Below, in pieces: positions 26,501 through 58,728 of a stretch of DNA of 64,000 nt (positions are counted from its first letter, which is position 1; each line of letters begins with the position of its first letter). Location: the IMG/VR virus record IMGVR_UViG_3300021426_000004, positions 32,001-96,000 of that record. One strand, 5' to 3'. This DNA comes from a virus. Taxonomy: Duplodnaviria > Caudoviricetes. The notes beneath the pieces are model-generated. The model was not told the origin of the DNA. It made no database searches and saw nothing but the letters and a program-made list of their open reading frames with translations. Both the position numbers and the translations under genes were made by a program.

Positions 26501-26616
26501 ACATCCGTAGCCTGACCGGAAACGTCTGATTTGTTATCATATAAATCACATACTACATTGTTGTTATAATCATATATAGTTAAACATAACTTCCTTTTGC
26601 GTTGCATCCCTTTCAC
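20572..26616 (-). CDS. Tal / tail spike-hub protein (prophage endopeptidase-tail-like N-terminus, central fibre)
   Basis: 2014 aa directly after Dit; TRLYAYG; WEWRTAATGYGLTADEINTGKLSAD; repeated GNIxGWYI..VFWAGG..FxV. Confidence 0.8.
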   Translation of the reverse strand: MKGMQRKRKLCLTIYDYNNNVVCDLYDNKSDVSGQATDVYIDKERNGWKELSFTIPSTCIGEDGLEENYRLNYLIAEYQIKAVDDKETDWYVISEPNITRNNFSKNVSVKAGHVSQLLKHKNLDLEFSDDEGNNVGTAEALLTTVLEGSSWNVGYVENFLDDNGEVKVRSITGPSGTGALGFIEKICDVFEAKPIYHGDTKTVDLISMNPLRDIDPRQIPAKVRDEFNVLELHYDRNIHSLSKTINANSMATRLYAYGSSGDMNGACTLQNAKHFEWQFTAPETGDEYSMNLEGTDNFFQGNVDVGDVLIWSNMDITSMTYIWNQTKGEAYELYDKPKGRYVQLVQQDVYQTENNFAYLLGLKYYRDVGLMSDETFQQVARFQKEMPEYYKIVKEKSESYIKGESDLSAIAEHNTGLLKLKISSVDVETESGIPSEAWPQKFTIDIDEGDHGVLYRTDYDKAERRFFQWHVTSQLKANGDPVTGTPSVLLFIHNTDPITWDMVYLKRIYDSNGELVVNSEGNPGDFTYTTGDFPTAVTVWGNNVKFQTSDRVYLLCTNSMTGLLGGRLNGIEALIENLYATTRKHPTTFFDLDDPTLVLPSPSNNEYEWLYKYHHDMRDGELWFCWAAKGESIWYRVYYEDTFPLGVEGDYYYDQKRKWLWRFTNGDWTKYESVPDQSVADMFSKVIYLCKRRDMLYKGLYKYYQYNGYVPVGNYAFSDGYGSFWTFKTKKDTNIKLLLNTVLGYVFQDDSDEVVSFSTVESDTVFYPLENELEGKTFYNGSIDPSNGVEQDVPNRFRTGTIRVWEDTRYNYDLPDGTFVHYYDVNLRYLGVNGLSGEGSFVTLPQTRYIRFTTNVQQPGGYVHVENYNNVFYMNEEQYSILAPVYTDLANVPEDQELIGIDPLMKKFADLADKTYEEDLTALRNAQTHIKEQENLLSDSLGDMLKDGRWQDANYIYGDEQRLYKDAMTMFKQISEPEVSYSFTFLDLFGTHQEEYYETHDAEWPDVDIVDICHLVDQESKTNCWAYIEKLHKCYDQEWKTTLDIDTKLTIASKHNFSDVLGRIAEVAKDIRAKQSIYEQSFTRPVDSSRLQGIIDINQNMLNGGSSNWHTDEKGNIIFEAADGLSAMVLGGRGMGVANSRNADGSWEWRTAATGYGLTADEINTGKLSADLIEVGSITADKLMSNVGQELEIGSNKALQLFATTNGSRPAGSLLTTDAKIEINAGYEEGGTTVKAKINVASGGELNLEGGNVNISAGGILNLQSTGAFYLRAKGADDINSPKDGIYIGTDGMNLGGGKFKVAFSGDTSTVNITAAYFAVGDSARKVAEFSLDSDNGIINILANNLINIAAGNTLTLVSNGGGVVIGNIGQTFTIDSDTVNAYIYNRISSLNPTNASDEPIPFGSLVPGIYVGTDGINIANMVKLGADGNAKFTGEVNANSGLIGEIHIGLSGIYSGNKSSAAAESNGFYIDSLGAIYIGPHDQTGYCPFQVTNDGSLRAVKGNIAGWYIRSDYLGNAETKNDSTIGIANATGSNIVFWAGGNYNNNPDAPKFIVQANGTLISTLGNIGGWYIGDSYIGNNSSKEVSTVGMAFYPITADDSSVVFWAGGAFSSTPYFRVTKGGILYAVGAVISGDAHFSGTIDAGAVVSCNISADRITSGAMSADRIYGGTLTLGGENGKFGRIVIKDSHNEDIGYWDRSGITALAGTISGPTISACEISSSTISGGSITGSSINIGDGNFTVNSLGEVTMKQLIVDGIPVNVSDFDKAVAYGSGAWDGTTFNATFNFFKGKISRTVGMSSSVDVTYISSLMPWAEGGNDGYALGTVGLDLYVSGEKRSDAVERVMFDATNLYDEAWDQARGSVSYTPGAKTIYVPRKGGFKGKDVESYDITATWTDGEQNVTTVSGTISQAIYNSSPWKVRVQLSSGKSGTVDVDVSAAITKWEAEVEKAKEDAGTYNKGWNDCLAACTSHTYYTGTWYDVLYVARAITAKAVNNCIGEVTSVTAYTLPPAKS

Positions 26617-26621
26617 TTCCT

Positions 26622-27728
26622 TTACGCAAACGTAGGTTTATAGGAAAAACTCAGATGAGTTAAATCCATTGAATTATCAGGAATGATTTCAATCTCATTC
26701 ATCTTTGTAATTACTGTGCTGTAATTACTTGTTTTGGAAGCATGCTGATCCAATACGATAGTATTTTCAGTCGGCTGATCAACTATTTTTCTCCAAGAGC
26801 CGCCAATGTAAATATAACTTCCAATCACATCTGTATAGATGCGGTTATAAAGTTGAACAGTCGTATTGGAAATTGCTTCAATATAAAGCTCGCGAAGCAT
26901 AGGATACGCAGGGGCAAGTTGGATAAACCCTGACTCATGATAGAAATATGCAGGGGAAACATTCCCTTCTTCATCGATCAACGAAGTCTTGCCACTCACA
27001 CCATCGATGCGTACAGTTTTGTTGTAGTTGGATGTATGAGCTTTATCCATAGCTACAATTCTGCATTCCTGTTTCGTTGTCTTGTTTCGAATTGTAATTC
27101 CGGCTCCTACATCTCCAGCGGCAACAATAGACACGTCTGCTCTTTCAGTGCCGGGATTGTGTAGTAATAAAGAAGTGCTTGCTGTCAAATTCGAATAGGA
27201 CAGGGGAGTCATAAATTCCTGTCTGTCGAACAGCGCTGTACTTCTCATTAACAGATCGTGCATTGTATTGTCGCCGCCGTCATTAGGATCAGCCGGACTA
27301 TATAAAAGATCACTTCTTGCAAACGGATAGTAAGATTTCATAGTGATGGTAATCGTGCCGTTTAAATAGTTTGCAAGTTCAGGGGCGGGGGAGCTTGTTA
27401 CTGTGGCATAATAGTAACACCACGGCCTGCGTGAGAATATAAGCTTCCCAGACTTACCCATTCTGAATAAGTTATAAATACGTTCCATAAGTCCACGGTC
27501 GATAGCTTCTTCTTCGAAATAGCAACGTAGAATAAATTCTTTAATTTGTTTAGAAGCTCCATAAAAATATCCGCCATCATGACCGTCAAATGTTTCTTCA
27601 TGAATAGTCGTTTCAGCCGGACGGTAAACATAGGTATTCTCTTTTTCCGGTGCGTAGTTTAACCCAAGATCTGCAATATCCACGCCGCAAAAAGAAAATC
27701 CGCCGCGTATAAGTTTTTCACACTGCAT
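26622..27728 (-). CDS. Distal tail protein (Dit)
   Basis: 368 aa right after TMP; GFSFCG...GHDGGYFYG...GKLIFS..PWCYY..YYPFARS. Confidence 0.8.
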   Translation of the reverse strand: MQCEKLIRGGFSFCGVDIADLGLNYAPEKENTYVYRPAETTIHEETFDGHDGGYFYGASKQIKEFILRCYFEEEAIDRGLMERIYNLFRMGKSGKLIFSRRPWCYYYATVTSSPAPELANYLNGTITITMKSYYPFARSDLLYSPADPNDGGDNTMHDLLMRSTALFDRQEFMTPLSYSNLTASTSLLLHNPGTERADVSIVAAGDVGAGITIRNKTTKQECRIVAMDKAHTSNYNKTVRIDGVSGKTSLIDEEGNVSPAYFYHESGFIQLAPAYPMLRELYIEAISNTTVQLYNRIYTDVIGSYIYIGGSWRKIVDQPTENTIVLDQHASKTSNYSTVITKMNEIEIIPDNSMDLTHLSFSYKPTFA

Positions 27729-27854: not shown

Positions 27855-30800
27855 TCACCACGCGTAAGACGCAGTGTTGAAGCCACTCTTTGACAATTCC
27901 TTAGTAAATTCTTTGCCGATTTTCTGTGCGAGAGCAGAAATATCCTGATCGTTATCAATCTTAGCTTCGTTAATCGTAATGTTAACATCGCCGTAATTGT
28001 TTGTTGTGGTTCCATACATGGAAGGATCAATATGAGTCATAGTAGGTGCTTTCACGTAAGTGAATGCATCGAGCATTGCTCTCATATTAGCCCTGTCTTC
28101 AGCGTTCAGGAATGCTTCCGGTTTTTGCGGAGATCCGTGTACCATAGCAAGTCCTGTATAATCTACTTCTCCACCTTCAGAGAATCCAAAGGTTTTTCTA
28201 AGATTATCAACAAAAGAAGCAGCAGCTTTTACCGTTGCGTTTGCAACAGAAGCCACGCTGGATGAAGAAGAAGTTGAAGCTTTTTTTGATGCACTTGGAA
28301 AGTCCATATGTGTAGCAGCACTATAATACTTTCCGTACTTTTTCAGTGCAATTTTATTCGCCTCTTCTACTGTATAAGCTTCGACAGTCCAATTAGTTTT
28401 ATTTCCTTTTTCATCATATATATCCCAAATCTTTTTTGATCCTCCGCCAGAAGGCTTTCCACTTCCACTGCTTGATCCTCCACCGCCAGAAGATGGAGCA
28501 GGAGTAGGCGCAGGAGGCGGAGCAACATACCCAACACCCTTATAATCTGAGTCATACTCATAAGGTATAACACTTCTGTCTCTATTGTAGACATAATCGC
28601 TTATAGTACCACCAAAGTCATAGTTTCCAAGACCGGCAATATTTACATTAAATGTCCAGTCCTTCAGATCGTTTATTGTATCAATAATCTCATGATTATC
28701 ACTAAATGTAGCATCATCTATCATCGAAGCTGTAAAGGAATCATATAATTCTCCGGCTCGATACAAATAGCTTTCCCGTCCTGTATCTGAAAGCTTAAGA
28801 TATTCATCCTGAGTTTTCAGCAGTTCAAGGAACCCATCTCTGGATTGCATGGATTCATCTACTTGATCCCAATAGGTTCTCAGTTGACCAAGCATGGTAT
28901 ACCATGTGTCTTCCCAGCCGTTGATTAATTGCTGACGCTGTTCATCCGAAGACTTCTTAAAGTCTTCGTTATATTCAGCGTTCCAGTTTACAAAGTCTTC
29001 AAACGATCCGCTTAATAACCCATCGATAATATCTTTGAAGTTATTGATATTGGAAAGCAGTTCAGTCAGATTTTCCTGATATGTTGCCGCATAATCGTCA
29101 ATAGCCTTGGACTGATCGTTCAAGGATTGGATTTCTGCATTGGCAACATCCTGGGCATTCTGCATTGCCTGTTCCTTTTCCATCTCCTGGATCTTACGAC
29201 GGAGTTCGTTTGCTTCTTTTGTTCTGGTTGTATCTTGGCTGATTAAAGCTAATTGCCTTCTGTATTCAGCCAGCTCTTCATCCTTAGCTTCCTGATCCAT
29301 CATCTTCTTACGGAAGTTGACTCTTTCGTTAATCAGGTTTTTCTCTTCATTCAGTGTTTGCTTTTTCTTATCAAGAGTCTTCTGTTCCAGCGCCCATTGC
29401 TGTTGATAGTTCTTGGAAATAACAGCAAAGATATTATTCTGCATTGTTACTGTTGCAGAAAGCATATTCCTTTGCTTTTGAATCCAGGCACGAATAGCTT
29501 TATCGGCTTCGTTTTCAACGGCAATACGAGCTTTACGGATAGCATCTTGATTCTTCTCGATAAGCTCAGTATTCTTTTCAATTCTGTTATTAGTATCTGC
29601 AAGCTTTTCTTCCCAGGTTGTAATCTCTTTCGTAATCTCTTTGTACAGTTCTGGGAATTCTTTGGATTCGTTCAGCTGCTCTTCTAAATCTTTGATATGA
29701 TTCTGAATACTGTCTCTTTGATCTTCAAGGATTTTTCCTTCCCATTCAAGAGCAGTACCGTAATTAGTAAGCTGACCATTGTTTTGATATCTTGTCTGAT
29801 CATACTGCACAAGCTTTTGCTGGTGCTGAGAGAGATCGTAAGTTTCAGCAAAGGTTTCTTTCAGATTAGTAAATTTAGCCTTCTCAATAGCTTGTAATGC
29901 TTCCTGCCATTCATTCTTAAGAGAAGCAACATTCTCTTTTGTGGAACGAATAGTATCTTCGAGTTCTCGCCATTGTTGGCCTCCCTCTGTAATCTTACCG
30001 CTATTCTGCAAAGCAAGGTAATCTTCAAGAGCATTCTGCTGGTCTTTCAGCCGATCTGAAGCATTGCGGGCTTTCTCTTCAAGAATATTCTCGTAATTGA
30101 CGAAGTCATCATTACGAATAAATTCCTTTTCAGCTTCGCTTAACAGTTTCAGTTCATGCTCAAGAATAGAACCGCTGTCCTGATGGGCCTGAGTAAGTTC
30201 AGAAATCAAAGACTCTTCGATAGCCTGCTGATTGGAAAGAATAGAAGCTTCGTATTGAGCACTTGCTTCTTCCAACTCGTACAGAGTCTGAATAGCGCTC
30301 TGCCGTGCCGGGTCGCTTTCCTTCATTCCATCGATCTGCTTTTTAACTTGAGCAATAGCTGCATCGGTCATCTCTTTCATTTGACGATTGGTATCAATCG
30401 TACCTTCAAGAGTTCCACGATACTTTGTAAAATCGTTTACAGATTCATACATCTGCCCATAAGTATCAAGCATATTTGCTCTATGCTCAAGAGGCGCTTT
30501 CTGATTCTGAAGATCTTCAGCGATCTGTGAGATCCGAGCTTCCTGTAAATCAATAAGATCAGAAGCCATCTGGTTCTGAAGTTCAGCGTTCTCTTCTCTC
30601 ATTGCCCAGATCTTATCCCGTGTTTGAATCCAGCTGTCAGAGTTCTCTGTAAATGTTTTGAGCAGGTTTTCCCATTCCGTAATTTGTTTATCGTTTAAGT
30701 GAATTTGTTTACGGGTTTCTTCGATGGTCTGCTCCATAATACCTTCGTAGCTTTCAAATTGACCGCTCTTCTGATATCTTGCAGCCATCTTGGAAAGCAT

Positions 30801-33800
30801 ATTAAGATTATGACTACCACGCTTATCCTCGTTCTCTTGTTTCTGCTCAACAATAGTAATACGTTTAGCACCAAGATCGTTAATCGTATTTTTAATGTTT
30901 TCAAGATTTTCTTCGTATTGCATCAACTGTTCATTGGCTTTGTTCCAGTCATCAGAACCTCTCTCCAGTGTGGCGAGCTGGTTCTTAAGCTCCTGGATGC
31001 TTTGAGCGTATGCGCTTCTTAATCTTTCTTGGTTGGCAATCTGTTGATCGATATTGCTGCCATAATTATCATAATCGTTAGTAAAATCAAGATACTTTTC
31101 CTGGATCTCAAGCATTTTGGATTGATGCTCAATTTCGGAGATGCGTTGCTTCTGTTTTTCAAGAAGCTTATCGGTTGCGGATTTACCGCCACCTCCGCCG
31201 CCTCCGCCACCTTTATTATTATACGATCCGCCACGTCCGCCGCCTTTAACTCTTGCAGTTTTAAAGGTGCTAGAATCTGCAACGACTTTAACATCACCGT
31301 TTCCTTCTTTATCACTTTGTGCTATAACGCGAACATGTGCTTCTGCCAATATTCCGTTGAAAATTTCTAAAGCGGCTGCTAACGATTCATTATATTGTGC
31401 CACAACAGCCGCCAACTGACTGAAATCCAAATCTCCTGTTTGTGGATCGGTAATCATATTAATCTTGGGACGAACTTCAAATGGTTGAGCATTAATTTCG
31501 TCCAGTGCTTGTTGCACTAAAGGTTGGAGCATTTCTGTTCCAAAGTTTTCTTGAATAGAATCTTCAAGCAACTTTGAATATTCAGTTGCTTCTTCTTTTG
31601 TCCATTGTTCTATGTCTGACTTATCAAAACCGATTTTACCAAATTGTTTTACGGCAACTTGATCTTTTGCTATCTGTTTACCGGTTTTGCCAGTGCTTTT
31701 CTGAGCTGCTGTAATAGCATCTTGATAATCTTTTGCTTGTTTTGTTAACTGTGCAATTTCTTTCTTTTGGGCGAGGCCGCCTTTTGCCAGCTCACCCATT
31801 GATTTCGCAGCTTTTGAATTTGCTTCGCCATATCCTTTTGCTTCAACAGCAGCTGTCTTTAAAGCAGCTTTTGTATCTGTTAATCTATCTTTGATTATTG
31901 CTTCTTTTTCAGCATAATCAACAGCATTTTTATCAAGAGAAAGATAAGCATCAATTAATTCATCAAGCCCTGTCGCAGCACTTGTGAAGTCTTTTTTCAT
32001 ATCTTCGCTGGCTTTACCGTATTTATCTTGATATGTTCCATCTTCTATAGATTGAATCATATCATAAGCGCCTTGAATTTTATCTATCTGAGTTATTCCA
32101 TCATATCCTTGAGCATACCTTTGCATGCGAAGTGTTGCATAGCTTTCTTCGGGCGCCGTTAATGTATAGTTTTGATCTTTTGTTCTTTCTGCAATATCAG
32201 AACCAACAACAGCAGCATAATCGTTGTAGAATTGTGGATTAGTTATTGGATTATATAAGGACGCTGCATTATAAATCTCGTCTCTTGTTTTATATCCAAA
32301 GTCTGCATATGCAGCAGTTTGCATAGCATTATATCTGTTTATCTTTTCTTGATCTCCTGGTAAATAATCTGTACTGCCACCGTAATGGTTCATGATAGAG
32401 TTATATTCATCTTGTATTGCAAGATAATCCTTTTGATTTTGAGTTAATCCATTAAACGCTTGTTGGTAAAGCTCGTTATTGCCTTTTCTTAACTCATCAA
32501 TCCTGTTAGTATCACCGCTGAGAATTACTCTTTGAGCTTGTTCAATTTCATATGGAGTTTTCGAACGCTGTAAACCATAGGCAAGGTTTTCTCTGTCAAT
32601 ATCTTGTGTAGTGCCAATTGGTTCAAATTCTCCAAACGCCATTCTGTCAAACCAGTTTTGAAACTCAGGTGTTGCTGCATAACGTTGTCCAGTATCTTTA
32701 CTCGTCCAATATAATGCTCCTGTTGTTTCATCGTATTGATACGGTTGATAAATGGCATATTTGTTTATTTCTTCTAACGCATCTTTAACTAAAATAGGAT
32801 TTGTTTTTGTTTTATATCCCATTTTTGCAGCTTCTTGTTGTGCGTAATCAACACCCATCGTTTTTGCAAGTTGGGTGAGCCGTCCAGCCGTTTGTTCTCT
32901 TTGATCTTGAATTGCTCTATCTGCATTAGCTCTAGCTTCTGTCATATTTGCTTCTATACGAGCTTTACTCCATCCTGGATTCAGGCTCATTAAAGCATTC
33001 ATTTGTTCTTCCGAAGTTCCATTTTGAAGCATAGCTACTTGCTGTTCAAAATTATAATTATCAGACTCCATTTGAAGCTTAGCTTTAATCTCAAATTGTC
33101 CGCCCTTTTTAAGGTTCTCAATTAACTGAGTTGTTCCTTGAAGAACTTTATTAGCACTTTCAAGATCGTCGATTCCAGCAACAGCAATCTTAACATCAAA
33201 GTCTCTCTTAAGATTGAGTCCTTCGATATCAGTCCGCTGTGCTTCTGTCATATTTTTATATCTATCAATTTCAGCGCCATAAATACTATTAACAGCATCA
33301 TACTGACTTTTAGTCCAATTATTTGCTTGAGCATATTCAGCCAAAGACTTATAATCACTTGACATTGCTTTATCGGCAAGATCTGCGATTTCTTTCTTTG
33401 TGTATTGCGTCAATCCAGTATCTGGTTTTAATGAATTTTTGCTGATTGACTGATTGATGTATTTCTCAATCTCTTCAGAAACTTCGCCATTTTCATATGC
33501 TTTTAATATCTCATCGGTCATATCACCGAATATATTTTGCATATTTTTATATACTACTTCAAATACATCATCATTCTTAAATTCAGAGGCCCATGCATTA
33601 TCAGCTTCCATTGCGCTCATTGCTGTTTTTACAATATCTACAGGTTGTGAATATCCGATCTTTGCTTTGCTTGCAATATCTTGAAACTGTTCCCAAGTGA
33701 TTGAAGGATTTTCGCCTGTTGCCATCACATAAGCAGATAACAGTTCAGGAGAATTCGCAAGAACATTAGCAAACTCTTGAGCTCTGTCATTTTCTTCGTA

Positions 33801-36800
33801 GGATTTCTTAAGTTCTGACATATTTGTTGCTGTAGACACAGCAGCAATTAAATCTTCTCTTTGTTGATTGATTGGTCTTTTCTTTCTTAAATCAATTAAT
33901 GAAGCATCAACAGCGTTATCAACAGATGTTCTGTATTGAGCTATCTCTTCAGGAGTATATCCTTCAAGAAGATAATTTGAACCTTTTTTCTTCAGGTTGT
34001 CAATTTCAGCTGAAATTGCGGAAACATTCAATAAGTCACCAATGAAATACTTATCTTTTATATCTCCGTTTTCATCAGTTATCATCTTGAAAAATTTATC
34101 AGTAAAAATATTTTGTATAGTACTTTCACTAACAGTGTCTGTTGCCAAATCGCTTAAATTCCACTGTCCAATCAACTCTTTGATATAATCATTATTAAAG
34201 GTACGTCTCTGAGCATCATATGTTTCTTCATTGCTAAAATCTAATTTAAAACGATTTTTCCAAAAACTATCGTAAGCAGCTGCAATGATTCTTTGATCTG
34301 AAGCTTGTAAATCTTTAACTTTCTTAGGATCTGTACCAAGCAAAGATAACATTGTTTCATCGTTTTTGTAATATGATCCAATGATTTTTTTAGCAACGTC
34401 ACTCTTATTAAAAAGATTAACAAAACCAGTGGCTTTATCAAGCGTTGGATTATTACTTTCACTAAAAATATTTTGTGATGTACTAAAGTTATCAATTATT
34501 TCATGAGATTGTAAATCGCCATTTTCATCATAATATGTTGTGTCTGCACCAGCTTCGGATAAATATTTTATTGCTTCTCGATCTAAATGACCATAATCAA
34601 ATCCACCAATAACAGTTTCATCAAACTTTTTATTGTATTCTTGTTGTCCATAAACTTCTTGATGTTGTTTGGTCATTTCATCTGTTTCTTTGTGTATTCT
34701 TGCTGCTTCGGCATCGGCAGCGTCAGATGCCTTAGTCAAAGCGCTAGAAAACTCAGAAAGATTCGTTGTTGCATTTTTAACTTCTGGTGCAATGGTAGGG
34801 AAGGCATTCCCTAAATCATTCATAGCAGAAATTAACTTTGCTCTTGCATCTTTTTCTGATATTGTATTTCCAGATTCGGTTGCTTTTAAATATTCATCAT
34901 ATTTCTTTTGAGCTTCACTTATAATATCTCTTCTATTATTTAAAGAAGACATACTCTTCGAATAATAATTATTTACATTAGCAAGATCAGCAGCGCTTTC
35001 ACGGGCGAATCTTTCTTCATCTGTTTCGACGGAGCCGCCGCCGAAAATTGTTTTTAATACGCCTGTAGTACCAATACCTGCAACTAATCCTACAATAGCA
35101 GATAATCCAGCAAGGATTGGCATTTTCAACTTTAATGCAAGAATTGCTCCACCTATTGCTGTTAACGTGCCGACAATAACGCCACCTGCTTGTTCAAAGG
35201 CATCCGATCCGGCCGCAAATTGAAGGAATCCTGAAACAATATCAAGAGCTCCTGTAACAACACCGCTATTGACAAAACTTTCAACAACCGCATCCCACGA
35301 ACTTTTAAGCGTATCTAAAGAAGCGGCGAGACTTTGCATAGCAATTTCATATTTTGATTGTGTTATTCCACCGCTATTTGAAGCAAGGTCAAGATATTCT
35401 TTTATCCTTTTGCCGCCGTCTTCGGACATACCTTCCATTAATGTTGAGAAGATATTTGTCTGTCTAGTTCCAGCTAAAGCGTTTGTAACAACGGATTTCT
35501 GAACATCACTCAACTTTTCCCATACACCAGCAAGATCACTTAAAACTTCGTATGCCGTGCGCATCTTTTGTCCGTTCTTATCTGAAAACAGATCTATACC
35601 AACAGACTTTAATGCTGCTTCAGCATCTGAAGCAGTTGTTTTTTCACCGTTTTGATCTGCCGTCCAGCCCGAAAGACTAATTCTTCTCATACGAGTAAAG
35701 ACAGTCTGCAAAGCCGTACCAACCTGAGTGCCGCTCAACTGAGTATCGGAAGTACCAACAGTGAGCAATGCAGTTAATTCTGCATAAGATACACCTGCAA
35801 CTTTAGCAGATGCAGCAGCCTTTTGCATACCTTTACCAATTTCGGCGGCGGTAGTTGCAGCGCTATCACCAAGCGCGACAAGTGCGTCCATTGCCTGTTC
35901 TGCAGAAGGCACCAGGTCATTCTGAAGAGCAGTTGTAATAATCTTTGTAGCTTCAGTAACGTTTAGTTTTGTAACTGTAGCAAATTTAATGATAGATTCT
36001 GTTCGATTTGAAACTTCTTGATCGCTTAATCCTTGACGATATAAAGCAGCTTCAGTGTTAGCAACATTGGAAACAGAAGTACGAAGTCCAATAGCTTTAT
36101 TAATTGTATTAGAACGAACAGAAGCCATATCACTATCTGACTTAAGCGTAATGGCCTGTATTTCGTTCATAGAAGCATCAAATTCTTTTATAAAACGCTT
36201 GGTTTCTTGGAGAGCTTTTTGAAAAAGTTGACGACCAAGACGAGCTGCAACTCTTTCAATTGTTTGACCAAACACAGCTGCAGTTGCACTGGCTTTGCCA
36301 AACGGACTTTGAAGCTGAGAAAGATCCTGACTTGCTCTTTGCGCTTCTTCTCTAAGTTTCGCGAGGTTAGTCTGAGCTTCAGCGTAACCATTGTCGCCTT
36401 CTTTTAATCCAGCAGTTTCTTTTTCGTAAGCTCGAAGCTTAGATTGCGCTTCAACGTTCCTATTTTCAGCTTGAGTAAGAGCGTTATTATAGATGCTGTA
36501 AGCACGAGTAGCAATATTTCTAGAAGTGCCAAAGCGATTCATACGCATCATATTGCCACGTCGAGTAATCTGATTTACTGCATAGCCTTGTTGTAATTGA
36601 CGAAGATCGTTTTGTGATTCAAAATCTTTTTTATACTGTTCTGTTACTTTTTCTACTTCACTGTTATACTCATCTTCAACTTGTTTTTTGTAATCTGATA
36701 AACGAGCATGAGGATTTGTCAGACGATCTTCTTTAAATTGTTGCGCGGCTTTTCTTGCATTTAACTCTTTTTGCGCATTTAATACATTAATACGCTCTTG

Positions 36801-39800
36801 TAAACCCTTGTTATATATTTCATCTTTCGATGCTTGAGTTATTCCGAGTTTTAATTTTGCAGCATCGATTTGATTTTGATCAAACTGATTTAAGGATTCG
36901 TTGCTTAACAAATGTTCTGCCTGAGAAAGCCGAGATGTCAATTCTGTTCCGCTTATAAGTCCTCGTTCAAACAAATCTTTAGCGTCGACTTTAGCATTGT
37001 TAATCTGTTCAATAAAAGAAAGCCTATTTTTTGCTAAGTCCATTGGCTTTGCGGCTTCTTTATCAACCATCGCTGTTAAAGAATTGAATGTATTTCCGAG
37101 AAGTTCTGTTGCAGATCCTTGTAATTGTTTAATATACTGTTGAACAAATGGTTCGTTTAGTTTCTCTTGTTGAGTAGCTGCATCCAAATTTTTTGTCATT
37201 GCTTCAACTTCTGAAACTTTTAAATCCATTTCCTCTTCTTGTTTTTTTCTAAGATCTTGCGTAGCTTGCAATCTGGATGTTGTTTTTTCTCTTGCAGTTT
37301 CAAGTCTTTCAGCAGCAAGTTTATCGTTTCCTTCTTTTATAGCACTGCTAATAGTAAAGAATTCATCGCTAGAAGCTAATTCTGGATGTCTGTTGAGAAG
37401 TTTTGTTCTTTCTCTTTTAGCAATTCCTTTTTCTTTTGTAGTCAAACCCGAGGAATTAATAGCATCAGTATATCCTTGAATACGATCTAATATATCTTTT
37501 TCTTCTTTGAGTTCTCGTTCTTGACTTTTTAAACTGTTTATGCGACCAGATGCATCTTCTATGTCTTGGTTTCGTTCGTCTATTCTTTCTGATAAATAAT
37601 CTTTATCTCTTCGAATATTATTAAATCTTTCCTGTACTTTATCATAAGATTCAACTAAAGCTCGACCGGCTTTTGTTCCGCTGTTTCCTGCAATGGACCT
37701 AAATATATCTTCTCCAAAGTTTTCAGTGTCCAGCACAACTGCTTGTGAAAGGCCAAGATCCAAATTGCTCATTGCTGCATCATATCGAGCTTGTAAGTCC
37801 TTTGCCTGAGCTGTATTACCAGCAATTTCCTCTTGTTTGGATTGCTCAAGAAGTAAGTTTGCTTGATTATACTTTGATCTCCATATTACATCGTCTGGAG
37901 TCCTTTTATCTCTTTCTCTTGTTCTTTTGTTAACAAAACTTTGAATTTCTTCATCTGCTTCAATTGCTTCATTATATCTGTCGTGCAACCATAAAGCATC
38001 TGTTATACTTCCTGTATTAAATTTTCCGCTTTTAGAACTTCCTTTTCTGTTAACAATTTGATCTGCAACACTTTCCCTAATATCTCCAAACATGTTTTCA
38101 CGGAGAAATTTAGCTGCATCAAGCACGTCTCCGATAGATGTATTTTCTTTTGCAAGTTGTTGAATTCTATTAATCGACCTAGATACATTATCATCACTTA
38201 AACTTAAATCAGCATCAGAAAAAATCATTTTTCGAATTCGATTCTGGTATGGTTCTATAATGCCAACTTCACCAATGTTTACTCCATTTTTTTGAAGTTG
38301 ACTATCATAAATAGCCTGCTGTACTCTCCATTTTTTCCAATCGTCGTCTGATGGTTTCCAATAATTCTTAATATCTGCCATCACTTCGCGTTGGTCATCT
38401 TTTCTGCTTCTGAATCTTAAGTCGTATGAACCAGTCATACCTACGTCTTCATCTGTTGTTAATTTTTTCCCTTTACCTGTTATTATCATATTTCCAGCAG
38501 CAGTTTTTGGACCTTTTCCTACGTCGCTTGATTCTATGCCAACGACTTGCCAATCGCTTTCTGGATAAATGCTTAATAATCCTTCTCCACCTAAAAATTG
38601 ACGAAGAGCGTAATATCTGTCGTTTAAGTTTGTTCCACTTGTTTTTAACGTTTGGCGTTCAGCATCTGTTAATCCTCTGCTTCCTGCAGGAAGTTTAAAT
38701 CCTTTTCCTTGCTTTTTTAAACCAAGATACTCGTCAAAAACATCAAGAGCTTCTTTTTGTGCTGCTTTCAGCTGATCTTCTGACAATGGTGCTGAAGCAT
38801 TCATTCGCAGTTGCATAAAGTGCTCAATTGCTGTATGTGCAGCTTGCCCAATTTCTGTACTAGCAAGCGTTGAATTATTTTCACGTCCAGTAATTAAGTC
38901 TTCCATAAAGTTTGCTGGATTATATGCAAATTTCGACAATGAGCTAAAAGAAAGTCTTGGCATATTGTCAATCATTCTTTTTTTCTCATCTACAGTCAAC
39001 AAATTAAATGACTCCAAAAGTCTAGCAAGTTTAGTATTCTGAGTGGGTTCACTCATTTCTTCAAACGCTTTAGGAGTTGTTTTTGCAGATAATAACTTTG
39101 TAAAGTCTAAACCTCCGACAACGTTTGGCAACTTCATTGCTTCTAATGTTGTGAAAATCGAATCATTTACGCCTTCATCGTGCATATGCGATGCAGACAT
39201 TGCCATACCAGACAATGCGTTTTGAATAACCTTGCCGCCTAATCTATTAACTACTCTTTCGGCTATTGCTCTGTTTGATCCTTTTTCGTTAAATGCTTTA
39301 CCTTGTCTGTCTCTTTCGTTTTTCACTAACGCTGCTTGTTCATCGATTGCAGCAGAGCGCAATTCTCCTAATTTAGCAATTGTTTCTTCGTCTATGGCAA
39401 GATAATCTGCATTTAAATATCCCATCCAAGTATCACGTAACGCAGATTGCATACGACCTAAAGCAGTTGATTCATCCTTTTTCCCTAACACAGAATCAAA
39501 AATATAATTCCAGTCATAATTTTTATTAATATCTACGCCTCTTTGTTTAGCAAAATACCGAGAAAGCATCATAGAACGTACATTGCTAGACATTGTATTA
39601 AACGGAAGATTGGTTGACCAGAATTTAGCGCCAAGCAAACCATCGCTGCCTTTAGCGCTTTCGATTAAATTTGGAATGGATACGTTTCCATATTTATCTC
39701 TGTTTTTATCGACAATATGGAAAAACTCCGTAAATGCTCTGTATTTTGATAACACTTCTAATTGTTCCGGAGTTGTATCCATTTCTATACCAGTCTTATT

Positions 39801-42800
39801 TCTAATAGAATTAACACTGTATTGTGATTCTGCAGCAGACATAGCTTTTAAAACAGTTGAATCCCAAGGAACTTGCATTGCGTTACGAATAGTTGCGTCA
39901 GGACCACCCATAAAATACCCATTCTGCATTGCTGGAACGAGTACTTTCATAACATCTATACCTTTATTTAAATCAATATCATCTGCACCAAAGACGTTAT
40001 GTTTAAATTCTTCTTTTATTTTATCTGCTTCAGCTTGAGAAAGGCCTCTTTCGTCTATTTTCTTTATACCTAAATCATAAGCTTTTTTCAAAATCTCTGC
40101 CGCTGCAACTTTTTCGCCTTTTTTATTTTTACCTGTATATGCAAGACCAATCAAATCCATGACGTCTCCATCGAAATCAGCGTCTTGCAGAAGCTGCATA
40201 ACTGGAGATGAAGGTGAAATATAAAAAGCATCCGGATCAAAACCAGAATCTGAAAGATACTTTTGAATTGCTTTTTCACGTTGAGAGTTTCCGACAGATA
40301 TATTTTTAACTTCTCTTGCAGAACGTGTCGTTGCAGGATACCGACTAATTCCTACAACTGAAGCCATGAGCTTCTGAAAAGCAATTTCGTCATCATCCAT
40401 AGTCAGCAAACCAAGTGTTTTTCTTTGGTCTTCAGACATTTGAGAGTACAGTGTATCGTAATATGATTTTGTTTCTCCGTCTTTAATTATGCCTGTGCCG
40501 CTTTCGTTTATGTTTTTTAATCCAGATATAATTGCATTAAAGAAATATGGTTGAGCCATTGCCCTGGAAGTTTCTAAGGATCTAGGTAAAATTGTATCTC
40601 CTTGCGAAATTCTCGTAAGCATTCCAAGACGGAATCCTTGTATTTCGTCCTGAATGCGCTTATCTCCCATGACAGCACCGTTTGTTGCTAATATTAAATC
40701 TCTCATTTCTGAGTTACCAGCAAAGACGGTATCAAGAGCTCCCTGCATTGTTCCAACACGGGCATACTCGTCTAAAAATGCTCGTGTTGTCATTTCGACA
40801 AATTCCGGAGAATTACCAAGAATCTGCGATGCTTGTCTGGACATCCAGTGGATTCCGCCTTGAGCATCTTTCATTGTTTTGTTTGCAAAAATTTTTCCAC
40901 CTGAACGTTCAATTTCTTCTGCAATATTCTTTTTAATTTCTTCTGTAGGAAGTAGTTTTCCATTATCATCTTTATATTTGATTCCGGCGTTTTTTACATC
41001 GGACATACTAAGTAAAAGATCCAAATCGTCTGTTATTTCTTCTACTCTTCCGTCAGGACCGATTGTTTTTACGGAGCCACCAAAGGGAGCCAGAAAACTT
41101 GATAAATTCAATGGGCTTAAGGCTGTTTTAACACCTGGCATGCGTGCTTGAAATCCTCTTGGAACATACTTGCTGTTTATGTAGCTTGTTCCGTTCATAC
41201 CAGACCCGCCAATTTCTGAAGGTGTTTGTCCAAATTTTGCGGCATCTTCAAGATCAAACAGTCCAATTTTTAAGTTCTTTGGCAGTTTGGTGCCAAATAA
41301 ATCTTGAATGCTTTCGCCAGATGTTGCAGGTTTACTCGCGTATTCTAGCGTTTTTGCTGCTTTATTAAATGCTTCGTCTCCGACGAAGTGCAAATTTTTT
41401 AGTCCGCCCCAAAAAACACTTTTATCTCTTTCTCCTGTTTCTTGATTTATAACAGGCGCAATGGCATTATATAAAGGATCAGCAACAAACTCCAAACCTA
41501 ATCCTTTATGTGCTCGCGAAAACGTATAATGTGTTTGTTTTCCGTGAGGAGACTTTGTAAGTCCTTCGTCAATGTATTTCGCATATTGTTGCATTAAATC
41601 GTTTCTTGTTTTTTCATCAAGACCTGGATCTGCAAGTCGCGGATCAACTTGAAGATAAACAATATCATCAATTGCATCGTTATTATTCGGCATCTTACCA
41701 GTTTTACGATGTCTAAATATGTTTTCCAGATGCAAACTATGGTCAATAGACATATAACGATCATCTCTGTCTGATTGACCGTAAAACTTTGTTCTATCTC
41801 TATTTAAATCAACACCGGCTTGTAAATCAGATAAAGTATAATTTGCAACTTCGTATCGTTTAATGTTTGGAGAAAACGGTATTTTTGCCTCTGTGTCACT
41901 AAATTGATTTAATGGAATATTTGATACTTTTGCTCCACGATTAGGCGTGAGCCAACTGAAATTATCGGATAGAATGCGTGCTGCATTCATATTACCTAAA
42001 AAAGGTTTATTGTTTTTTCTAGCGATTCTATCCCAAAATTGTTTATCATTAACATCTGTAATGCCATACATCGGCATACCTTTTGCAGAAGAAATGATCG
42101 CATCATATAACTCGCTGGAAAGGTTGTTGATTAACCCCCGGGTTAGTCCATTCCTCATTCCAATCGTTCCGTTTAATCGAACAGCTACTCCCGATTTTTC
42201 AGCAGCTGACAAAAAGTAAGGATTGGTTTTAAGTAAATTTTCAACTATAGCCTTTTCTTTGTTTGTTAAAGCTTCGTTGCTGTTTGGCTCGGATATAGCG
42301 CCTTTTGCCGCGTGAAAATTTTGAAATTGAGATGGAAGCATATTTGCAAAGCTATCAAAAAGATGTGCTTGTTTTTCAGATCCTCTTGATATTTGCGACA
42401 TAAAACCTTTACGTTGTGTTTGGTCTGTTCCTTGGAACATTAATATTTCTGACAAAGCATCTGCTGCTTTTGAAGTTCTTGACATTCCAAGTTGTTCAAA
42501 AATACCATTATCAAAAAGTTTATTTTTTATTCCTGCTTTAAAAGAAGCTGTATCCATCAGTGTTGTAGCAGATCTTTGAAAATCAGCAACTTGTGTTACC
42601 AATGCACGCATATTTGGCATTAAATTGGTTGCAGTTTTCAATAAACTCTGGCCTGCTTTTTTCCCGCCAACAGAAGACATTAAAGTAGATGAAGCAGTAA
42701 CAAATGAACGCATTTCATTTATTGTTGCTTCAATTCCTCTGCGAAGCATTTCTCTTTCAGCGTACAAGTCACTTAATTGCTTTTCTGAAAAAATAGGTGA

Positions 42801-43028
42801 ACTATCTATCTCTTGGTTTATCTTATTAATTCTGGAAAAAGAATTAACAATTGAGTCCTTCCCTTGAGAAAAAAACTCATCAGAACCGGAAATCATTTCT
42901 CCAGCCGAATTTTGTATTTGTTTAATATTATCAAGTACGCCCTTTGAAGCATCTTTTATACTTGAAAACTCTTTAATTGCGCTTGAACCATCAACATCAA
43001 GAGCAATACGAATAGTTGTATCAACCAT
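27855..43028 (-). CDS. Tape measure polyprotein with N-terminal two-barrel RNA polymerase and PD-(D/E)XK nuclease domains
   Basis: 5057 aa between tail chaperones and Dit; RNAP motifs FQARMPGVK (aa 626-634), SMSDVK (K679), SRQ, RYP (aa 896), DADFDGD (aa 949-955); nuclease motifs GSYD (D1536), DIK (1552-1554), QQAIY; TP901-type TMP domain at ~35300-36200; coiled coils; C-terminal FSEGGEVDYTGLAMVHG..PEAFLN. Confidence 0.9.
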   Translation of the reverse strand: MVDTTIRIALDVDGSSAIKEFSSIKDASKGVLDNIKQIQNSAGEMISGSDEFFSQGKDSIVNSFSRINKINQEIDSSPIFSEKQLSDLYAEREMLRRGIEATINEMRSFVTASSTLMSSVGGKKAGQSLLKTATNLMPNMRALVTQVADFQRSATTLMDTASFKAGIKNKLFDNGIFEQLGMSRTSKAADALSEILMFQGTDQTQRKGFMSQISRGSEKQAHLFDSFANMLPSQFQNFHAAKGAISEPNSNEALTNKEKAIVENLLKTNPYFLSAAEKSGVAVRLNGTIGMRNGLTRGLINNLSSELYDAIISSAKGMPMYGITDVNDKQFWDRIARKNNKPFLGNMNAARILSDNFSWLTPNRGAKVSNIPLNQFSDTEAKIPFSPNIKRYEVANYTLSDLQAGVDLNRDRTKFYGQSDRDDRYMSIDHSLHLENIFRHRKTGKMPNNNDAIDDIVYLQVDPRLADPGLDEKTRNDLMQQYAKYIDEGLTKSPHGKQTHYTFSRAHKGLGLEFVADPLYNAIAPVINQETGERDKSVFWGGLKNLHFVGDEAFNKAAKTLEYASKPATSGESIQDLFGTKLPKNLKIGLFDLEDAAKFGQTPSEIGGSGMNGTSYINSKYVPRGFQARMPGVKTALSPLNLSSFLAPFGGSVKTIGPDGRVEEITDDLDLLLSMSDVKNAGIKYKDDNGKLLPTEEIKKNIAEEIERSGGKIFANKTMKDAQGGIHWMSRQASQILGNSPEFVEMTTRAFLDEYARVGTMQGALDTVFAGNSEMRDLILATNGAVMGDKRIQDEIQGFRLGMLTRISQGDTILPRSLETSRAMAQPYFFNAIISGLKNINESGTGIIKDGETKSYYDTLYSQMSEDQRKTLGLLTMDDDEIAFQKLMASVVGISRYPATTRSAREVKNISVGNSQREKAIQKYLSDSGFDPDAFYISPSSPVMQLLQDADFDGDVMDLIGLAYTGKNKKGEKVAAAEILKKAYDLGIKKIDERGLSQAEADKIKEEFKHNVFGADDIDLNKGIDVMKVLVPAMQNGYFMGGPDATIRNAMQVPWDSTVLKAMSAAESQYSVNSIRNKTGIEMDTTPEQLEVLSKYRAFTEFFHIVDKNRDKYGNVSIPNLIESAKGSDGLLGAKFWSTNLPFNTMSSNVRSMMLSRYFAKQRGVDINKNYDWNYIFDSVLGKKDESTALGRMQSALRDTWMGYLNADYLAIDEETIAKLGELRSAAIDEQAALVKNERDRQGKAFNEKGSNRAIAERVVNRLGGKVIQNALSGMAMSASHMHDEGVNDSIFTTLEAMKLPNVVGGLDFTKLLSAKTTPKAFEEMSEPTQNTKLARLLESFNLLTVDEKKRMIDNMPRLSFSSLSKFAYNPANFMEDLITGRENNSTLASTEIGQAAHTAIEHFMQLRMNASAPLSEDQLKAAQKEALDVFDEYLGLKKQGKGFKLPAGSRGLTDAERQTLKTSGTNLNDRYYALRQFLGGEGLLSIYPESDWQVVGIESSDVGKGPKTAAGNMIITGKGKKLTTDEDVGMTGSYDLRFRSRKDDQREVMADIKNYWKPSDDDWKKWRVQQAIYDSQLQKNGVNIGEVGIIEPYQNRIRKMIFSDADLSLSDDNVSRSINRIQQLAKENTSIGDVLDAAKFLRENMFGDIRESVADQIVNRKGSSKSGKFNTGSITDALWLHDRYNEAIEADEEIQSFVNKRTRERDKRTPDDVIWRSKYNQANLLLEQSKQEEIAGNTAQAKDLQARYDAAMSNLDLGLSQAVVLDTENFGEDIFRSIAGNSGTKAGRALVESYDKVQERFNNIRRDKDYLSERIDERNQDIEDASGRINSLKSQERELKEEKDILDRIQGYTDAINSSGLTTKEKGIAKRERTKLLNRHPELASSDEFFTISSAIKEGNDKLAAERLETAREKTTSRLQATQDLRKKQEEEMDLKVSEVEAMTKNLDAATQQEKLNEPFVQQYIKQLQGSATELLGNTFNSLTAMVDKEAAKPMDLAKNRLSFIEQINNAKVDAKDLFERGLISGTELTSRLSQAEHLLSNESLNQFDQNQIDAAKLKLGITQASKDEIYNKGLQERINVLNAQKELNARKAAQQFKEDRLTNPHARLSDYKKQVEDEYNSEVEKVTEQYKKDFESQNDLRQLQQGYAVNQITRRGNMMRMNRFGTSRNIATRAYSIYNNALTQAENRNVEAQSKLRAYEKETAGLKEGDNGYAEAQTNLAKLREEAQRASQDLSQLQSPFGKASATAAVFGQTIERVAARLGRQLFQKALQETKRFIKEFDASMNEIQAITLKSDSDMASVRSNTINKAIGLRTSVSNVANTEAALYRQGLSDQEVSNRTESIIKFATVTKLNVTEATKIITTALQNDLVPSAEQAMDALVALGDSAATTAAEIGKGMQKAAASAKVAGVSYAELTALLTVGTSDTQLSGTQVGTALQTVFTRMRRISLSGWTADQNGEKTTASDAEAALKSVGIDLFSDKNGQKMRTAYEVLSDLAGVWEKLSDVQKSVVTNALAGTRQTNIFSTLMEGMSEDGGKRIKEYLDLASNSGGITQSKYEIAMQSLAASLDTLKSSWDAVVESFVNSGVVTGALDIVSGFLQFAAGSDAFEQAGGVIVGTLTAIGGAILALKLKMPILAGLSAIVGLVAGIGTTGVLKTIFGGGSVETDEERFARESAADLANVNNYYSKSMSSLNNRRDIISEAQKKYDEYLKATESGNTISEKDARAKLISAMNDLGNAFPTIAPEVKNATTNLSEFSSALTKASDAADAEAARIHKETDEMTKQHQEVYGQQEYNKKFDETVIGGFDYGHLDREAIKYLSEAGADTTYYDENGDLQSHEIIDNFSTSQNIFSESNNPTLDKATGFVNLFNKSDVAKKIIGSYYKNDETMLSLLGTDPKKVKDLQASDQRIIAAAYDSFWKNRFKLDFSNEETYDAQRRTFNNDYIKELIGQWNLSDLATDTVSESTIQNIFTDKFFKMITDENGDIKDKYFIGDLLNVSAISAEIDNLKKKGSNYLLEGYTPEEIAQYRTSVDNAVDASLIDLRKKRPINQQREDLIAAVSTATNMSELKKSYEENDRAQEFANVLANSPELLSAYVMATGENPSITWEQFQDIASKAKIGYSQPVDIVKTAMSAMEADNAWASEFKNDDVFEVVYKNMQNIFGDMTDEILKAYENGEVSEEIEKYINQSISKNSLKPDTGLTQYTKKEIADLADKAMSSDYKSLAEYAQANNWTKSQYDAVNSIYGAEIDRYKNMTEAQRTDIEGLNLKRDFDVKIAVAGIDDLESANKVLQGTTQLIENLKKGGQFEIKAKLQMESDNYNFEQQVAMLQNGTSEEQMNALMSLNPGWSKARIEANMTEARANADRAIQDQREQTAGRLTQLAKTMGVDYAQQEAAKMGYKTKTNPILVKDALEEINKYAIYQPYQYDETTGALYWTSKDTGQRYAATPEFQNWFDRMAFGEFEPIGTTQDIDRENLAYGLQRSKTPYEIEQAQRVILSGDTNRIDELRKGNNELYQQAFNGLTQNQKDYLAIQDEYNSIMNHYGGSTDYLPGDQEKINRYNAMQTAAYADFGYKTRDEIYNAASLYNPITNPQFYNDYAAVVGSDIAERTKDQNYTLTAPEESYATLRMQRYAQGYDGITQIDKIQGAYDMIQSIEDGTYQDKYGKASEDMKKDFTSAATGLDELIDAYLSLDKNAVDYAEKEAIIKDRLTDTKAALKTAAVEAKGYGEANSKAAKSMGELAKGGLAQKKEIAQLTKQAKDYQDAITAAQKSTGKTGKQIAKDQVAVKQFGKIGFDKSDIEQWTKEEATEYSKLLEDSIQENFGTEMLQPLVQQALDEINAQPFEVRPKINMITDPQTGDLDFSQLAAVVAQYNESLAAALEIFNGILAEAHVRVIAQSDKEGNGDVKVVADSSTFKTARVKGGGRGGSYNNKGGGGGGGGGKSATDKLLEKQKQRISEIEHQSKMLEIQEKYLDFTNDYDNYGSNIDQQIANQERLRSAYAQSIQELKNQLATLERGSDDWNKANEQLMQYEENLENIKNTINDLGAKRITIVEQKQENEDKRGSHNLNMLSKMAARYQKSGQFESYEGIMEQTIEETRKQIHLNDKQITEWENLLKTFTENSDSWIQTRDKIWAMREENAELQNQMASDLIDLQEARISQIAEDLQNQKAPLEHRANMLDTYGQMYESVNDFTKYRGTLEGTIDTNRQMKEMTDAAIAQVKKQIDGMKESDPARQSAIQTLYELEEASAQYEASILSNQQAIEESLISELTQAHQDSGSILEHELKLLSEAEKEFIRNDDFVNYENILEEKARNASDRLKDQQNALEDYLALQNSGKITEGGQQWRELEDTIRSTKENVASLKNEWQEALQAIEKAKFTNLKETFAETYDLSQHQQKLVQYDQTRYQNNGQLTNYGTALEWEGKILEDQRDSIQNHIKDLEEQLNESKEFPELYKEITKEITTWEEKLADTNNRIEKNTELIEKNQDAIRKARIAVENEADKAIRAWIQKQRNMLSATVTMQNNIFAVISKNYQQQWALEQKTLDKKKQTLNEEKNLINERVNFRKKMMDQEAKDEELAEYRRQLALISQDTTRTKEANELRRKIQEMEKEQAMQNAQDVANAEIQSLNDQSKAIDDYAATYQENLTELLSNINNFKDIIDGLLSGSFEDFVNWNAEYNEDFKKSSDEQRQQLINGWEDTWYTMLGQLRTYWDQVDESMQSRDGFLELLKTQDEYLKLSDTGRESYLYRAGELYDSFTASMIDDATFSDNHEIIDTINDLKDWTFNVNIAGLGNYDFGGTISDYVYNRDRSVIPYEYDSDYKGVGYVAPPPAPTPAPSSGGGGSSSGSGKPSGGGSKKIWDIYDEKGNKTNWTVEAYTVEEANKIALKKYGKYYSAATHMDFPSASKKASTSSSSSVASVANATVKAAASFVDNLRKTFGFSEGGEVDYTGLAMVHGSPQKPEAFLNAEDRANMRAMLDAFTYVKAPTMTHIDPSMYGTTTNNYGDVNITINEAKIDNDQDISALAQKIGKEFTKELSKSGFNTASYAW

Positions 43029-46332: not shown

Positions 46333-47007
46333 TTACACACGTTTAAAATGATATTTTTTTGCTCGAATATTGTTTTTTATTGATTGATACACAGATCCTC
46401 TGGGAAGATTCATTTCTTTTTCTGCGGCTAGCTGAGAATCATAAATACATCCAGTTTCTATACATTGAACTTTGGTTGATTTATGATTGTTTGCGCCCAT
46501 CATACTTGGACGTTTATTGTGCCGACATGCATCTAAAGCAGCTAAGGAGTTCGGATTTTTTCCAGCTCGTATATTTCCTTGACGTATTTTTTCTTTTGTT
46601 TTATCTGACAAATGTTTTCCTTTACGAGAAGCAACGCTTGCCTCGATAGCTTTTTCAGGACGTTTATTCCAAAAAGGATTGAGATTTCCTTTTAAGCCCC
46701 TATTGTTATATCCGCCTTCGGCAAAATTATACCCATAGTCTCTGTTTGTTGTTTGAAGCTTTTTAATTAACATTTTTTCTGTATTAGAAGCTTCGTCTTT
46801 AGTTAAATTCGATGCAAAAATTTCATGATCAAAATTATCCCAACCATATTTTTCAATCGCACTATTGAAATGCCAATTATAATTATATCCTTTTCCATTT
46901 TTCCATCTATTGTTAGGATTTGTTTTTTTAGACATTCCAACATATATTTTTCCATTAATCTTGTTTATATGTATATAAACATAATATGGTCCATTTTCTA
47001 TAATCAT
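46333..47007 (-). CDS. GIY-YIG family homing endonuclease with NUMOD-type DNA-binding tail
   Basis: 224 aa; YYVYIHINKINGKIYVG, GYNFAEGG, KGKHLSDKTKEKI, VQCIETGCIYDS. Confidence 0.88.
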   Translation of the reverse strand: MIIENGPYYVYIHINKINGKIYVGMSKKTNPNNRWKNGKGYNYNWHFNSAIEKYGWDNFDHEIFASNLTKDEASNTEKMLIKKLQTTNRDYGYNFAEGGYNNRGLKGNLNPFWNKRPEKAIEASVASRKGKHLSDKTKEKIRQGNIRAGKNPNSLAALDACRHNKRPSMMGANNHKSTKVQCIETGCIYDSQLAAEKEMNLPRGSVYQSIKNNIRAKKYHFKRV

Positions 47008-56996: not shown

Positions 56997-57009
56997 ATAA
57001 ATACACTCC

Positions 57010-58265: not shown

Positions 58266-58303
58266 AAAATAATCACTCCTAAAAAATCATAATAGGGAGT
58301 CTT

Positions 58304-58328
58304 TCTCCCTTACGGTCTTTTTCGAAAG
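58304..58328 (-). promoter_or_regulatory. 25-bp repeated motif copy 3 (candidate late promoter) at the head of the morphogenesis region
   Basis: Minus strand CTTTCGAAAAAGACCGTAAGGGAGA. Confidence 0.65.
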
Positions 58329-58516
58329 ACACGTTAAAAAGTGATAATAAATGCTGTTTATTTTTTTATAGTGTTTTGAAATGTTTACAAAATATTTTAT
58401 TAATGTCGAAGAAGATTTGATTTTAAGCATGCTTTTTTATTTCAGCGTAAAAAAAGGGGACAAGATTTATTTTTAATATACATGTCCCCTTTAAATGTTC
58501 TATTCAGAAAATTGAT

Positions 58517-58603
58517 TTAAGGAATGGGTTGGAAGAATCATTTGGAAGAATGATTTGGAAAAATAAGTTGGAAGATGATTTAAAGGACGACTTGGAAGAG
58601 AAC
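58517..58603. repeat. Seven degenerate 12-13-bp tandem repeats (TTGGAAGAATGAT-like)
   Basis: Units start at 58517, 58529, 58542, 58555, 58568, 58580 and 58592. Confidence 0.8.
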
Positions 58604-58728
58604 ATATCTACATCCTTTTTCTTTTATTGGAATTTTCCAGCGTAAATTCCCACCCTCCCACTTGGGATGGTGAACTGCCGGGCGCTTACGAGCAAACCCG
58701 AGCAAAAAGAAAAATGGAGGAAACAAAA

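Follow-up and report, generated by a model that had tools for sequence, protein, structure and literature searches.

The locus described here raises the question of whether the tape measure protein (TMP) of a phage, i.e., the ruler of its tail, carries an RNA polymerase (RNAP) of its own and, if so, what this enzyme does. The TMP in question is encoded within a 64,000-nucleotide stretch of DNA, referred to below as the window, which corresponds to bases 32001-96000 of one 148,117-bp virus record of an uncultured cattle-gut phage (IMGVR_UViG_3300021426_000004). An earlier note had proposed that a single-subunit, two-barrel RNAP of the so-called RNA-dependent RNA polymerase (RdRP)-like/YonO-like type is built into this TMP. 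Conservation, modelled structure and profile comparison support this proposal: amino acids (aa) ~200-1250 are predicted to form a single-chain two-barrel (double-psi beta-barrel, DPBB) RNAP of the YonO/QDE-1 clade. By analogy with a known system, it is likely that this enzyme is built into the virion, injected together with the TMP and used to transcribe the DNA that enters the cell first.

Catalytic motifs and their conservation

The TMP open reading frame (ORF) starts with an ATG codon, upstream of which lies the ribosome-binding site GAAGAGGTG. The ORF and the parts that make up its N-terminal quarter are listed below in window coordinates.

27855..43028, minus strand: TMP ORF, 5,057 aa, without internal stop
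42429..43028, minus strand: N-terminal leader, aa 1-200, helical and weakly conserved (conservation profile)
39279..42428, minus strand: conserved RNAP module, aa ~201-1250 (conservation and AlphaFold2 (AF2) model)
39516..42083, minus strand: polymerase core, aa 316-1171, as delimited by the alignment to QDE-1 (VIA-align)
40989..41195, minus strand: motifs of the beta-like barrel (DPBB-B), aa 612-680, namely (N/D)G..., FQxRxxGxK (K634) and ...DxK (K679) (invariant residues, YonO-type register)
40137..40574, minus strand: predicted beta-prime-like barrel (DPBB-A), aa ~819-964, carrying RxP (R896) as well as the loop that binds Mg (structure match)
40164..40178, minus strand: DFDGD metal-binding triad, D951/D953/D955 (invariant in homologues)

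The six-motif series on which the proposal had been based was recovered, in order and at the residues claimed, from this single ORF: NGTSYIN (aa 612-618), FQARMPGVKTAL (aa 626-637, including K634), LLSMSDVKN (aa 672-680, including K679), WMSRQASQIL (aa 728-737), GISRYPAT (aa 893-900, including R896) and LQDADFDGDVMD (aa 947-958), the last of which contains DADFDGD (aa 949-955, nucleotides 40164-40184). An exhaustive HMMER search with TMP aa 401-1300 as query returned 47 representative clusters, approximately 28 of which represent giants of 3,700-6,900 aa in which the match always falls at residues ~400-1300. Exactly one D.DGD motif, located at aa 890-1040, is present in every homologue of at least 1,000 aa that reaches that far. 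Furthermore, Q627, R629, K634, K679, Q732, R896, P898, D951, D953, G954 and D955 are invariant in the 28-29 aligned sequences, which are 22-66% identical to the domain of the window. Since each long homologue possesses a single D.DGD and the catalytic residues do not vary, the motif set is not a product of chance, and the two lysines and the aspartate triad singled out in the earlier note (including DFDGD, whose conservation in homologous TMPs it had named as a check) are borne out.

The span that had been assigned to the polymerase (positions 39300-41750, aa 427-1243) proved roughly right, although too short on its N-terminal side: the conservation profile shows the domain to extend from aa ~200 to ~1250, so that the module begins upstream of aa 427, and the alignment to QDE-1 starts at aa 316. 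The same conservation bears on the suggestion that the domain is an inactive relic with a structural role, e.g., plugging the tail or serving as a spacer at the end nearest the head. A portion of the TMP may indeed matter for tail length only, yet all catalytic residues are invariant down to 22% identity, which is unexpected for a decayed enzyme, and we consider a relic very unlikely.

Predicted fold and sequence placement

The AF2 model of aa 201-1300, built from a 26-sequence alignment, reached a predicted local distance difference test (pLDDT) score of 85 and a predicted template modelling (pTM) score of 0.83. As the earlier note had anticipated for an AlphaFold and Foldseek comparison, the model matched known polymerases: a Foldseek search of the PDB returned QDE-1 (E 3e-10), plant RDR2, and P74-26 gp62/P23-45 gp64 (E 4e-4 to 7e-4). 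When these matches were re-scored with VIA-align, RDR2 (7roz) obtained a Z of 19.4 (514 aligned, root-mean-square deviation (rmsd) 4.2 Å), QDE-1 a Z of ~18 (528-545 aligned), gp62/gp64 a Z of 12.7 and P23-45 gp96 a Z of 9.2 (372 aligned); the QDE-1 chain 7y7p_A aligned over 528 residues (Z 18.2, rmsd 4.1 Å), covering aa 316-1171. A separate, Foldseek-independent scan of 48,161 PDB representatives placed QDE-1 (18.2), RDR2 (15.4), P74-26 gp62 (12.7), two crystal forms of P23-45 gp96 (9.2 and 9.1) and crAss phi14:2 gp66 (7.5, 569 aligned) in the top six positions, i.e., exclusively solved single-chain two-barrel RNAPs. Below these, only helical-hairpin matches to the C-terminal coiled coil of the model were found.

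Model residues 619-764, which hold DFDGD, resemble the N-domain of p97, a double-psi barrel (Z 4.5), as well as the large subunits of Pol I/IV/V and of AR9 RNAP, in keeping with the double-psi barrels that had been expected of the model. A search of BFVD returned phage proteins labelled 'RNA dependent RNA polymerase' (E 3.5e-14), together with pieces of giant crAss-like phage proteins. K634 and K679 both fall in predicted strands, and the inter-barrel connector of ~217 aa (K679 to R896) is confidently folded. Judged by its motifs, the active site looks complete, with the two invariant lysines and an arginine contributed by the beta-like barrel, and RxP and DFDGD by the beta-prime-like barrel.

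Placement by sequence required comparison of families. The PF05183 profile gave no significant match in the TMP polymerase domain or in 12 homologue rows, and tblastn of the domain against 50,697 GenBank phage records was blank. A YonO-like family profile was assembled from ORFs of the phage's own genome and of three related records; one of its members shares 32.5% identity with SPbeta YonO. Against this template, hhalign returned the TMP-polymerase family with a probability of 96.8% (E 2.3e-10, 391 columns). The register is kept for the (D/N)G..., FxxR...K, ...K, ..Q.., RxP and DxDGD blocks, and K634 and K679 align with the corresponding YonO-type lysines. Only this family-against-family comparison was significant, as hhalign of the small TMP profile against single YonO-like sequences was not. 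The probability returned against P23-45 gp96 was 0.4-1.9%, i.e., without detectable sequence relationship, and for this reason the TMP domain is counted as a separate fusion lineage. By profile comparison, the TMP polymerase is thus related to the YonO-type enzyme that the phage itself encodes. Taken together with the invariant residues and the six top structure matches, these results agree with the two-barrel, YonO-like identity originally put forward, and they add a sequence family that current domain databases do not recognize.

The tape measure core, the nuclease domain and the free polymerases

The portion of the ORF that lies C-terminal to the polymerase module contains three further features.

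38229..39023, minus strand: predicted RecB/Cas4-type PD-(D/E)XK nuclease domain, aa ~1336-1600 (motif and AF2/Foldseek)
35469..36089, minus strand: canonical tape-measure core, PF10145 PhageMin_Tail, aa 2314-2520 (Pfam E 3.5e-30)
35043..35189, minus strand: hydrophobic segment, aa 2614-2662 (hydropathy scan)

The 5,057-aa ORF is a genuine TMP, as indicated by its core domain, its hydrophobic segment and its position upstream of Dit and Tal. Ten PHROG TMP families match aa ~1900-2780, and tblastn with aa 1900-2800 leads to annotated tape measure genes in other phages, mostly Bacillus phages. The hydrophobic segment probably inserts into a membrane. The neighbouring genes encode the large terminase (55305-57029), the portal protein (53721-55286), a head-tail adaptor and tail-tube proteins, while Dit (26622-27728) and a Tal-like protein (20572-26616; 2,014 aa, with a YomG N-domain) are encoded downstream of the TMP, which corresponds to the siphovirus tail module order TerL-portal-...-TMP-Dit-Tal.

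As the genome is a metagenomic assembly, the fusion might in principle be an artefact of assembly or gene calling in which separate genes for a polymerase and a TMP were joined. However, ~28 homologues from different samples and sources keep the polymerase and the TMP core in one uninterrupted frame, with the polymerase always N-terminal. The record is a single contig, rated 100% complete, with an identical 127-bp overlap of its ends (genome positions 1-127 and 147991-148117) that is consistent with either a circular assembly or terminal repeats. In addition, the locus is present at high word share in animal and bovine gut metagenome sequencing runs from at least three studies; no RNA-type runs were found among the sequencing runs that contain it. 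An artefact can consequently be given next to no credence.

Short homologues that could be taken for 'stand-alone' enzymes were also considered, and were rejected as such: most start or stop inside the domain, which suggests truncation at contig ends. For example, the contig end past the apparent stop of one 1,224-aa 'protein' (P0029; L022:6676-6726) is Illumina adapter sequence, pointing to assembly truncation. A different situation is found in P0036 (L021:1130-6133), in which the polymerase module is closed by a true stop codon at a length of 1,315 aa; an ORF 175 nucleotides downstream continues the TMP homology and aligns to aa 1468-1938 of another homologue (P0037). The gene is either split naturally or damaged.

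Between polymerase and ruler lies the nuclease domain, which is characterized by the motif D1536, D1552-x-K1554 and Q1570-xxx-Y1574. It gave weak matches to Pfam PDDEXK_1 and to PHROG exonucleases. Its AF2 model (pLDDT 79) was matched by Foldseek to the Cas4-family protein ACE1 (1.2e-5), AddB (1e-4) and AdnA, and also to RecE, Cas4 and Dna2, all of which is in agreement with its prediction as a RecB/Cas4-type enzyme. All 12 of the closer homologues keep the motif unchanged, and a distant clade lacks the domain.

Two further polymerases are encoded outside the window. The first, a 939-aa YonO orthologue (L005:10307-13126, plus strand; genome 126307-129126), carries DVDGD, aligns with SPbeta yonO at 32.5% identity across 91% of its length (E 4e-111) and passes the threshold of Pfam RdRP (47.5 bits); SPbeta yonO is labelled a DNA-directed RNA polymerase in some records. 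The second, a 906-aa ORF located 896 nucleotides past the end of the window (L004:896-3616, plus strand; genome 96896-99616), carries the motif RYPH...GADYDGD. Its Pfam RdRP match is sub-threshold (E 7.7e-4), hhalign aligns it to the YonO family (89%, E 2.3e-6), and it is probably a third, divergent RNAP. This gene lies ~6 kb into a plus-strand block that begins at a divergent region near window positions 58,270-58,630. The genome also encodes a primase-helicase and PolIII alpha, and RdRP-like ORFs occur in three of the four related records. Early in the same plus-strand block lies a gene (window positions 61715-63517, plus strand) whose 600-aa product contains a PcfJ-like domain (Pfam E 1.2e-9).

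Proposed delivery with the tail and comparison with known systems

A TMP-fused polymerase has been described for phage P23-45, the virion polymerase gp96 of which transcribes the pre-early genes, while a non-virion polymerase, gp64, is also encoded (Chaban et al. 2024, PMC10770324); the earlier note had cited this precedent correctly. From the comparison with gp96 we infer catalytic activity, a DNA template, virion presence, injection and the identity of the transcribed genes for the phage analyzed here. The polymerase domain, being part of the ruler polypeptide, would be built into every virion and, upon infection, would leave the tail together with the TMP. Whichever phage DNA enters first would then be transcribed by it at the cell envelope, independently of the host RNAP. 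The first-entering genes may include that of the 906-aa polymerase, and transcription of later genes would fall to the two free polymerases, i.e., the divergent 906-aa enzyme and the YonO orthologue.

Alternatively, the polymerase module, with or without the nuclease, may be cut from the TMP precursor before or during tail assembly and act as a late, non-virion enzyme that is not injected. Some TMPs are proteolytically processed, the canonical TMP core begins only at aa ~1900-2300 in the present protein, and the stop that follows the polymerase module of P0036, with its separate TMP ORF, implies that the two parts can exist as separate polypeptides. On the other hand, ~28 independent homologues retain one uninterrupted frame, two free polymerases are already available for intracellular work, and the fused polymerase of P23-45 was detected in virions (PMC10770324). 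Cleavage is therefore regarded as unlikely.

Several observations weigh against the proposed delivery of an early transcriptase. Pfam searches with the domain and the 12 homologue rows (mostly N-terminal pieces or fragments) gave zero matches even at E<=1, and sequence searches of the PDB with the domain, by phmmer and by profile, were equally blank. The passage of a folded core of ~860 residues through the tail tube is not obvious; in the case of gp96 such passage was proposed to depend on a flat, clamp-less shape (PMC10770324), and the modelled connector is longer here than in gp96. A complete relative (G004, the record of L012; 115,379 bp, rated 100% complete) possesses a TMP-fused polymerase at 28% identity while showing no PF05183 match at E<=0.01; its extra free polymerases may be absent or too diverged for detection, and the multi-polymerase set may thus not be universal. 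No repeated promoter-like motif was found by searches for exact 10-14-mers or for intergenic 9-mer enrichment, which returned AT-rich words and repeats containing ribosome-binding sites. Finally, QDE-1 and RDR2, the closest solved structures, are RNA-dependent enzymes, and the fold consequently leaves the choice of template unsettled.

The last two points, together with the adjoining nuclease, which suggests processing of DNA ends, would also fit an active domain that does not perform promoter-driven early transcription, but instead copies RNA, primes replication or serves mainly as a genome-pulling motor. Yet the nearest relative by sequence is YonO, annotated as a DNA-directed RNA polymerase, a primase-helicase and PolIII alpha are already encoded by the phage, and both gp96 and crAss gp66 are DNA-dependent transcriptases. 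Such a role is considered quite unlikely, and delivery of the polymerase on the TMP for transcription of the first-entering DNA remains the explanation that we favor.

With respect to known systems, gp96 (of P23-45, and also P74-26, G20c and TSP4; PDB 8H2M/8H2N) bears a clear resemblance to the present protein. Both are giant TMPs (5,002 versus 5,057 aa) with a single-chain two-barrel polymerase within the N-terminal ~1,200 residues and the same DFDGD loop, both phages encode one or more free polymerases, and the presumed logic, i.e., a polymerase injected with the DNA, is shared. In contrast, DFDGD is located at aa 779 of gp96 and aa 951 of the present TMP, the two are without sequence relationship by hhalign, and gp96 is the weakest phage-type solved relative among the re-scored matches (Z 9.2 versus 18-19 for QDE-1/RDR2 and 12.7 for gp62/gp64), and thus not the closest one. 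Furthermore, gp96 belongs to a hot-spring Thermus Oshimavirus rather than to an SPbeta-like gut phage, its metallopeptidase was undetected in the present TMP, which has a RecB/Cas4 nuclease, and the present genome carries two further polymerases.

Profile comparison places the domain nearest to YonO of SPbeta (PF05183), which shares the phage background, the genome having its own orthologue. YonO, however, is a free protein of ~840 aa and is not known as a packaged enzyme, and the SPbeta TMP lacks a polymerase; the TMP-borne domain is too diverged for PF05183 and has a longer inter-barrel connector. YonO was reportedly established as a DNA-directed RNA polymerase by Forrest et al. in 2017. QDE-1 of Neurospora and RDR2 of plants, the best solved structure matches (Z 18-19 over 514-545 residues, both barrels), are eukaryotic polymerases of RNA interference that are mainly RNA-templated, non-virion and only 10-13% identical. 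The strategy of an injected polymerase within a very large protein is also represented by crAss phi14:2 gp66 (PDB 6VR4), a two-barrel enzyme that is among the structural matches of the present domain, and by the virion RNAP of phage N4, which is T7-like and not two-barrel. These, however, are internal or ejected proteins of podoviruses and not tail rulers.

In the literature searched, TMP-polymerase fusion was described only for P23-45 and its close relatives, and citing papers did not extend it. Supplementary Data 4 of the P23-45 study lists uncultured gut siphoviruses, including BK033905 and BK034237, with two 'Cyano_RUMTOR_01356' DFDGD polymerases, without mention of TMP fusion (PMC10770324), and the TMP polymerase family may therefore already bear this name. 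A published fusion confined to Thermus phages could look like a curiosity; the same architecture is now found in unrelated, large SPbeta-like gut phages, with a different polymerase family, dozens of metagenomic relatives and, often, an attached nuclease. This argues that long-tailed phages have arrived repeatedly, and not just once, at delivering a polymerase on the tape measure. With its three polymerases, the genome also offers a concrete case in which to study transcription that does not depend on the host. More tentatively, and less likely than not, the fusion may have arisen independently in an SPbeta-like gut lineage by duplication of a resident YonO-type gene, paralleling gp96/gp64; this would yield a cascade of three polymerases (TMP enzyme, then 906-aa enzyme, then YonO) independent of the host RNAP, with the co-injected nuclease acting at the entry pore, either on the DNA of the host or on that coming in.

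The SPbeta-like background is apparent from the structural genes of relatives, which match the SPbeta-named Pfam families YonB, YomU_Tube, YomX_C and YOMG_N. The host is likely a member of the Bacillota, probably of the Clostridia. The designation 'Clostridia-type', as used in the earlier note, has only two sources: YonO and the terminase find their best matches in phages of Bacillus, Clostridium, Enterocloster and Thomasclavelia, and one relative (49% identical) lies on a 136-kb contig that was binned into an Acutalibacteraceae metagenome-assembled genome. This contig has phage replication genes at each end and ends without overlap; because it looks like a whole binned phage, the bin is weak evidence of host.

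Elsewhere in the window, a homing-endonuclease ORF (46333-47007, minus strand; PHROG 314, E 3e-27) is located amid the head-tail and tail-tube genes. Two very large ORFs of the tail region, at 2382-9449 and 16539-19148 (both minus strand; 2,355 and 869 aa, respectively), have a common peptidase-like N-terminal PHROG (15439), in addition to repeats without assigned function.

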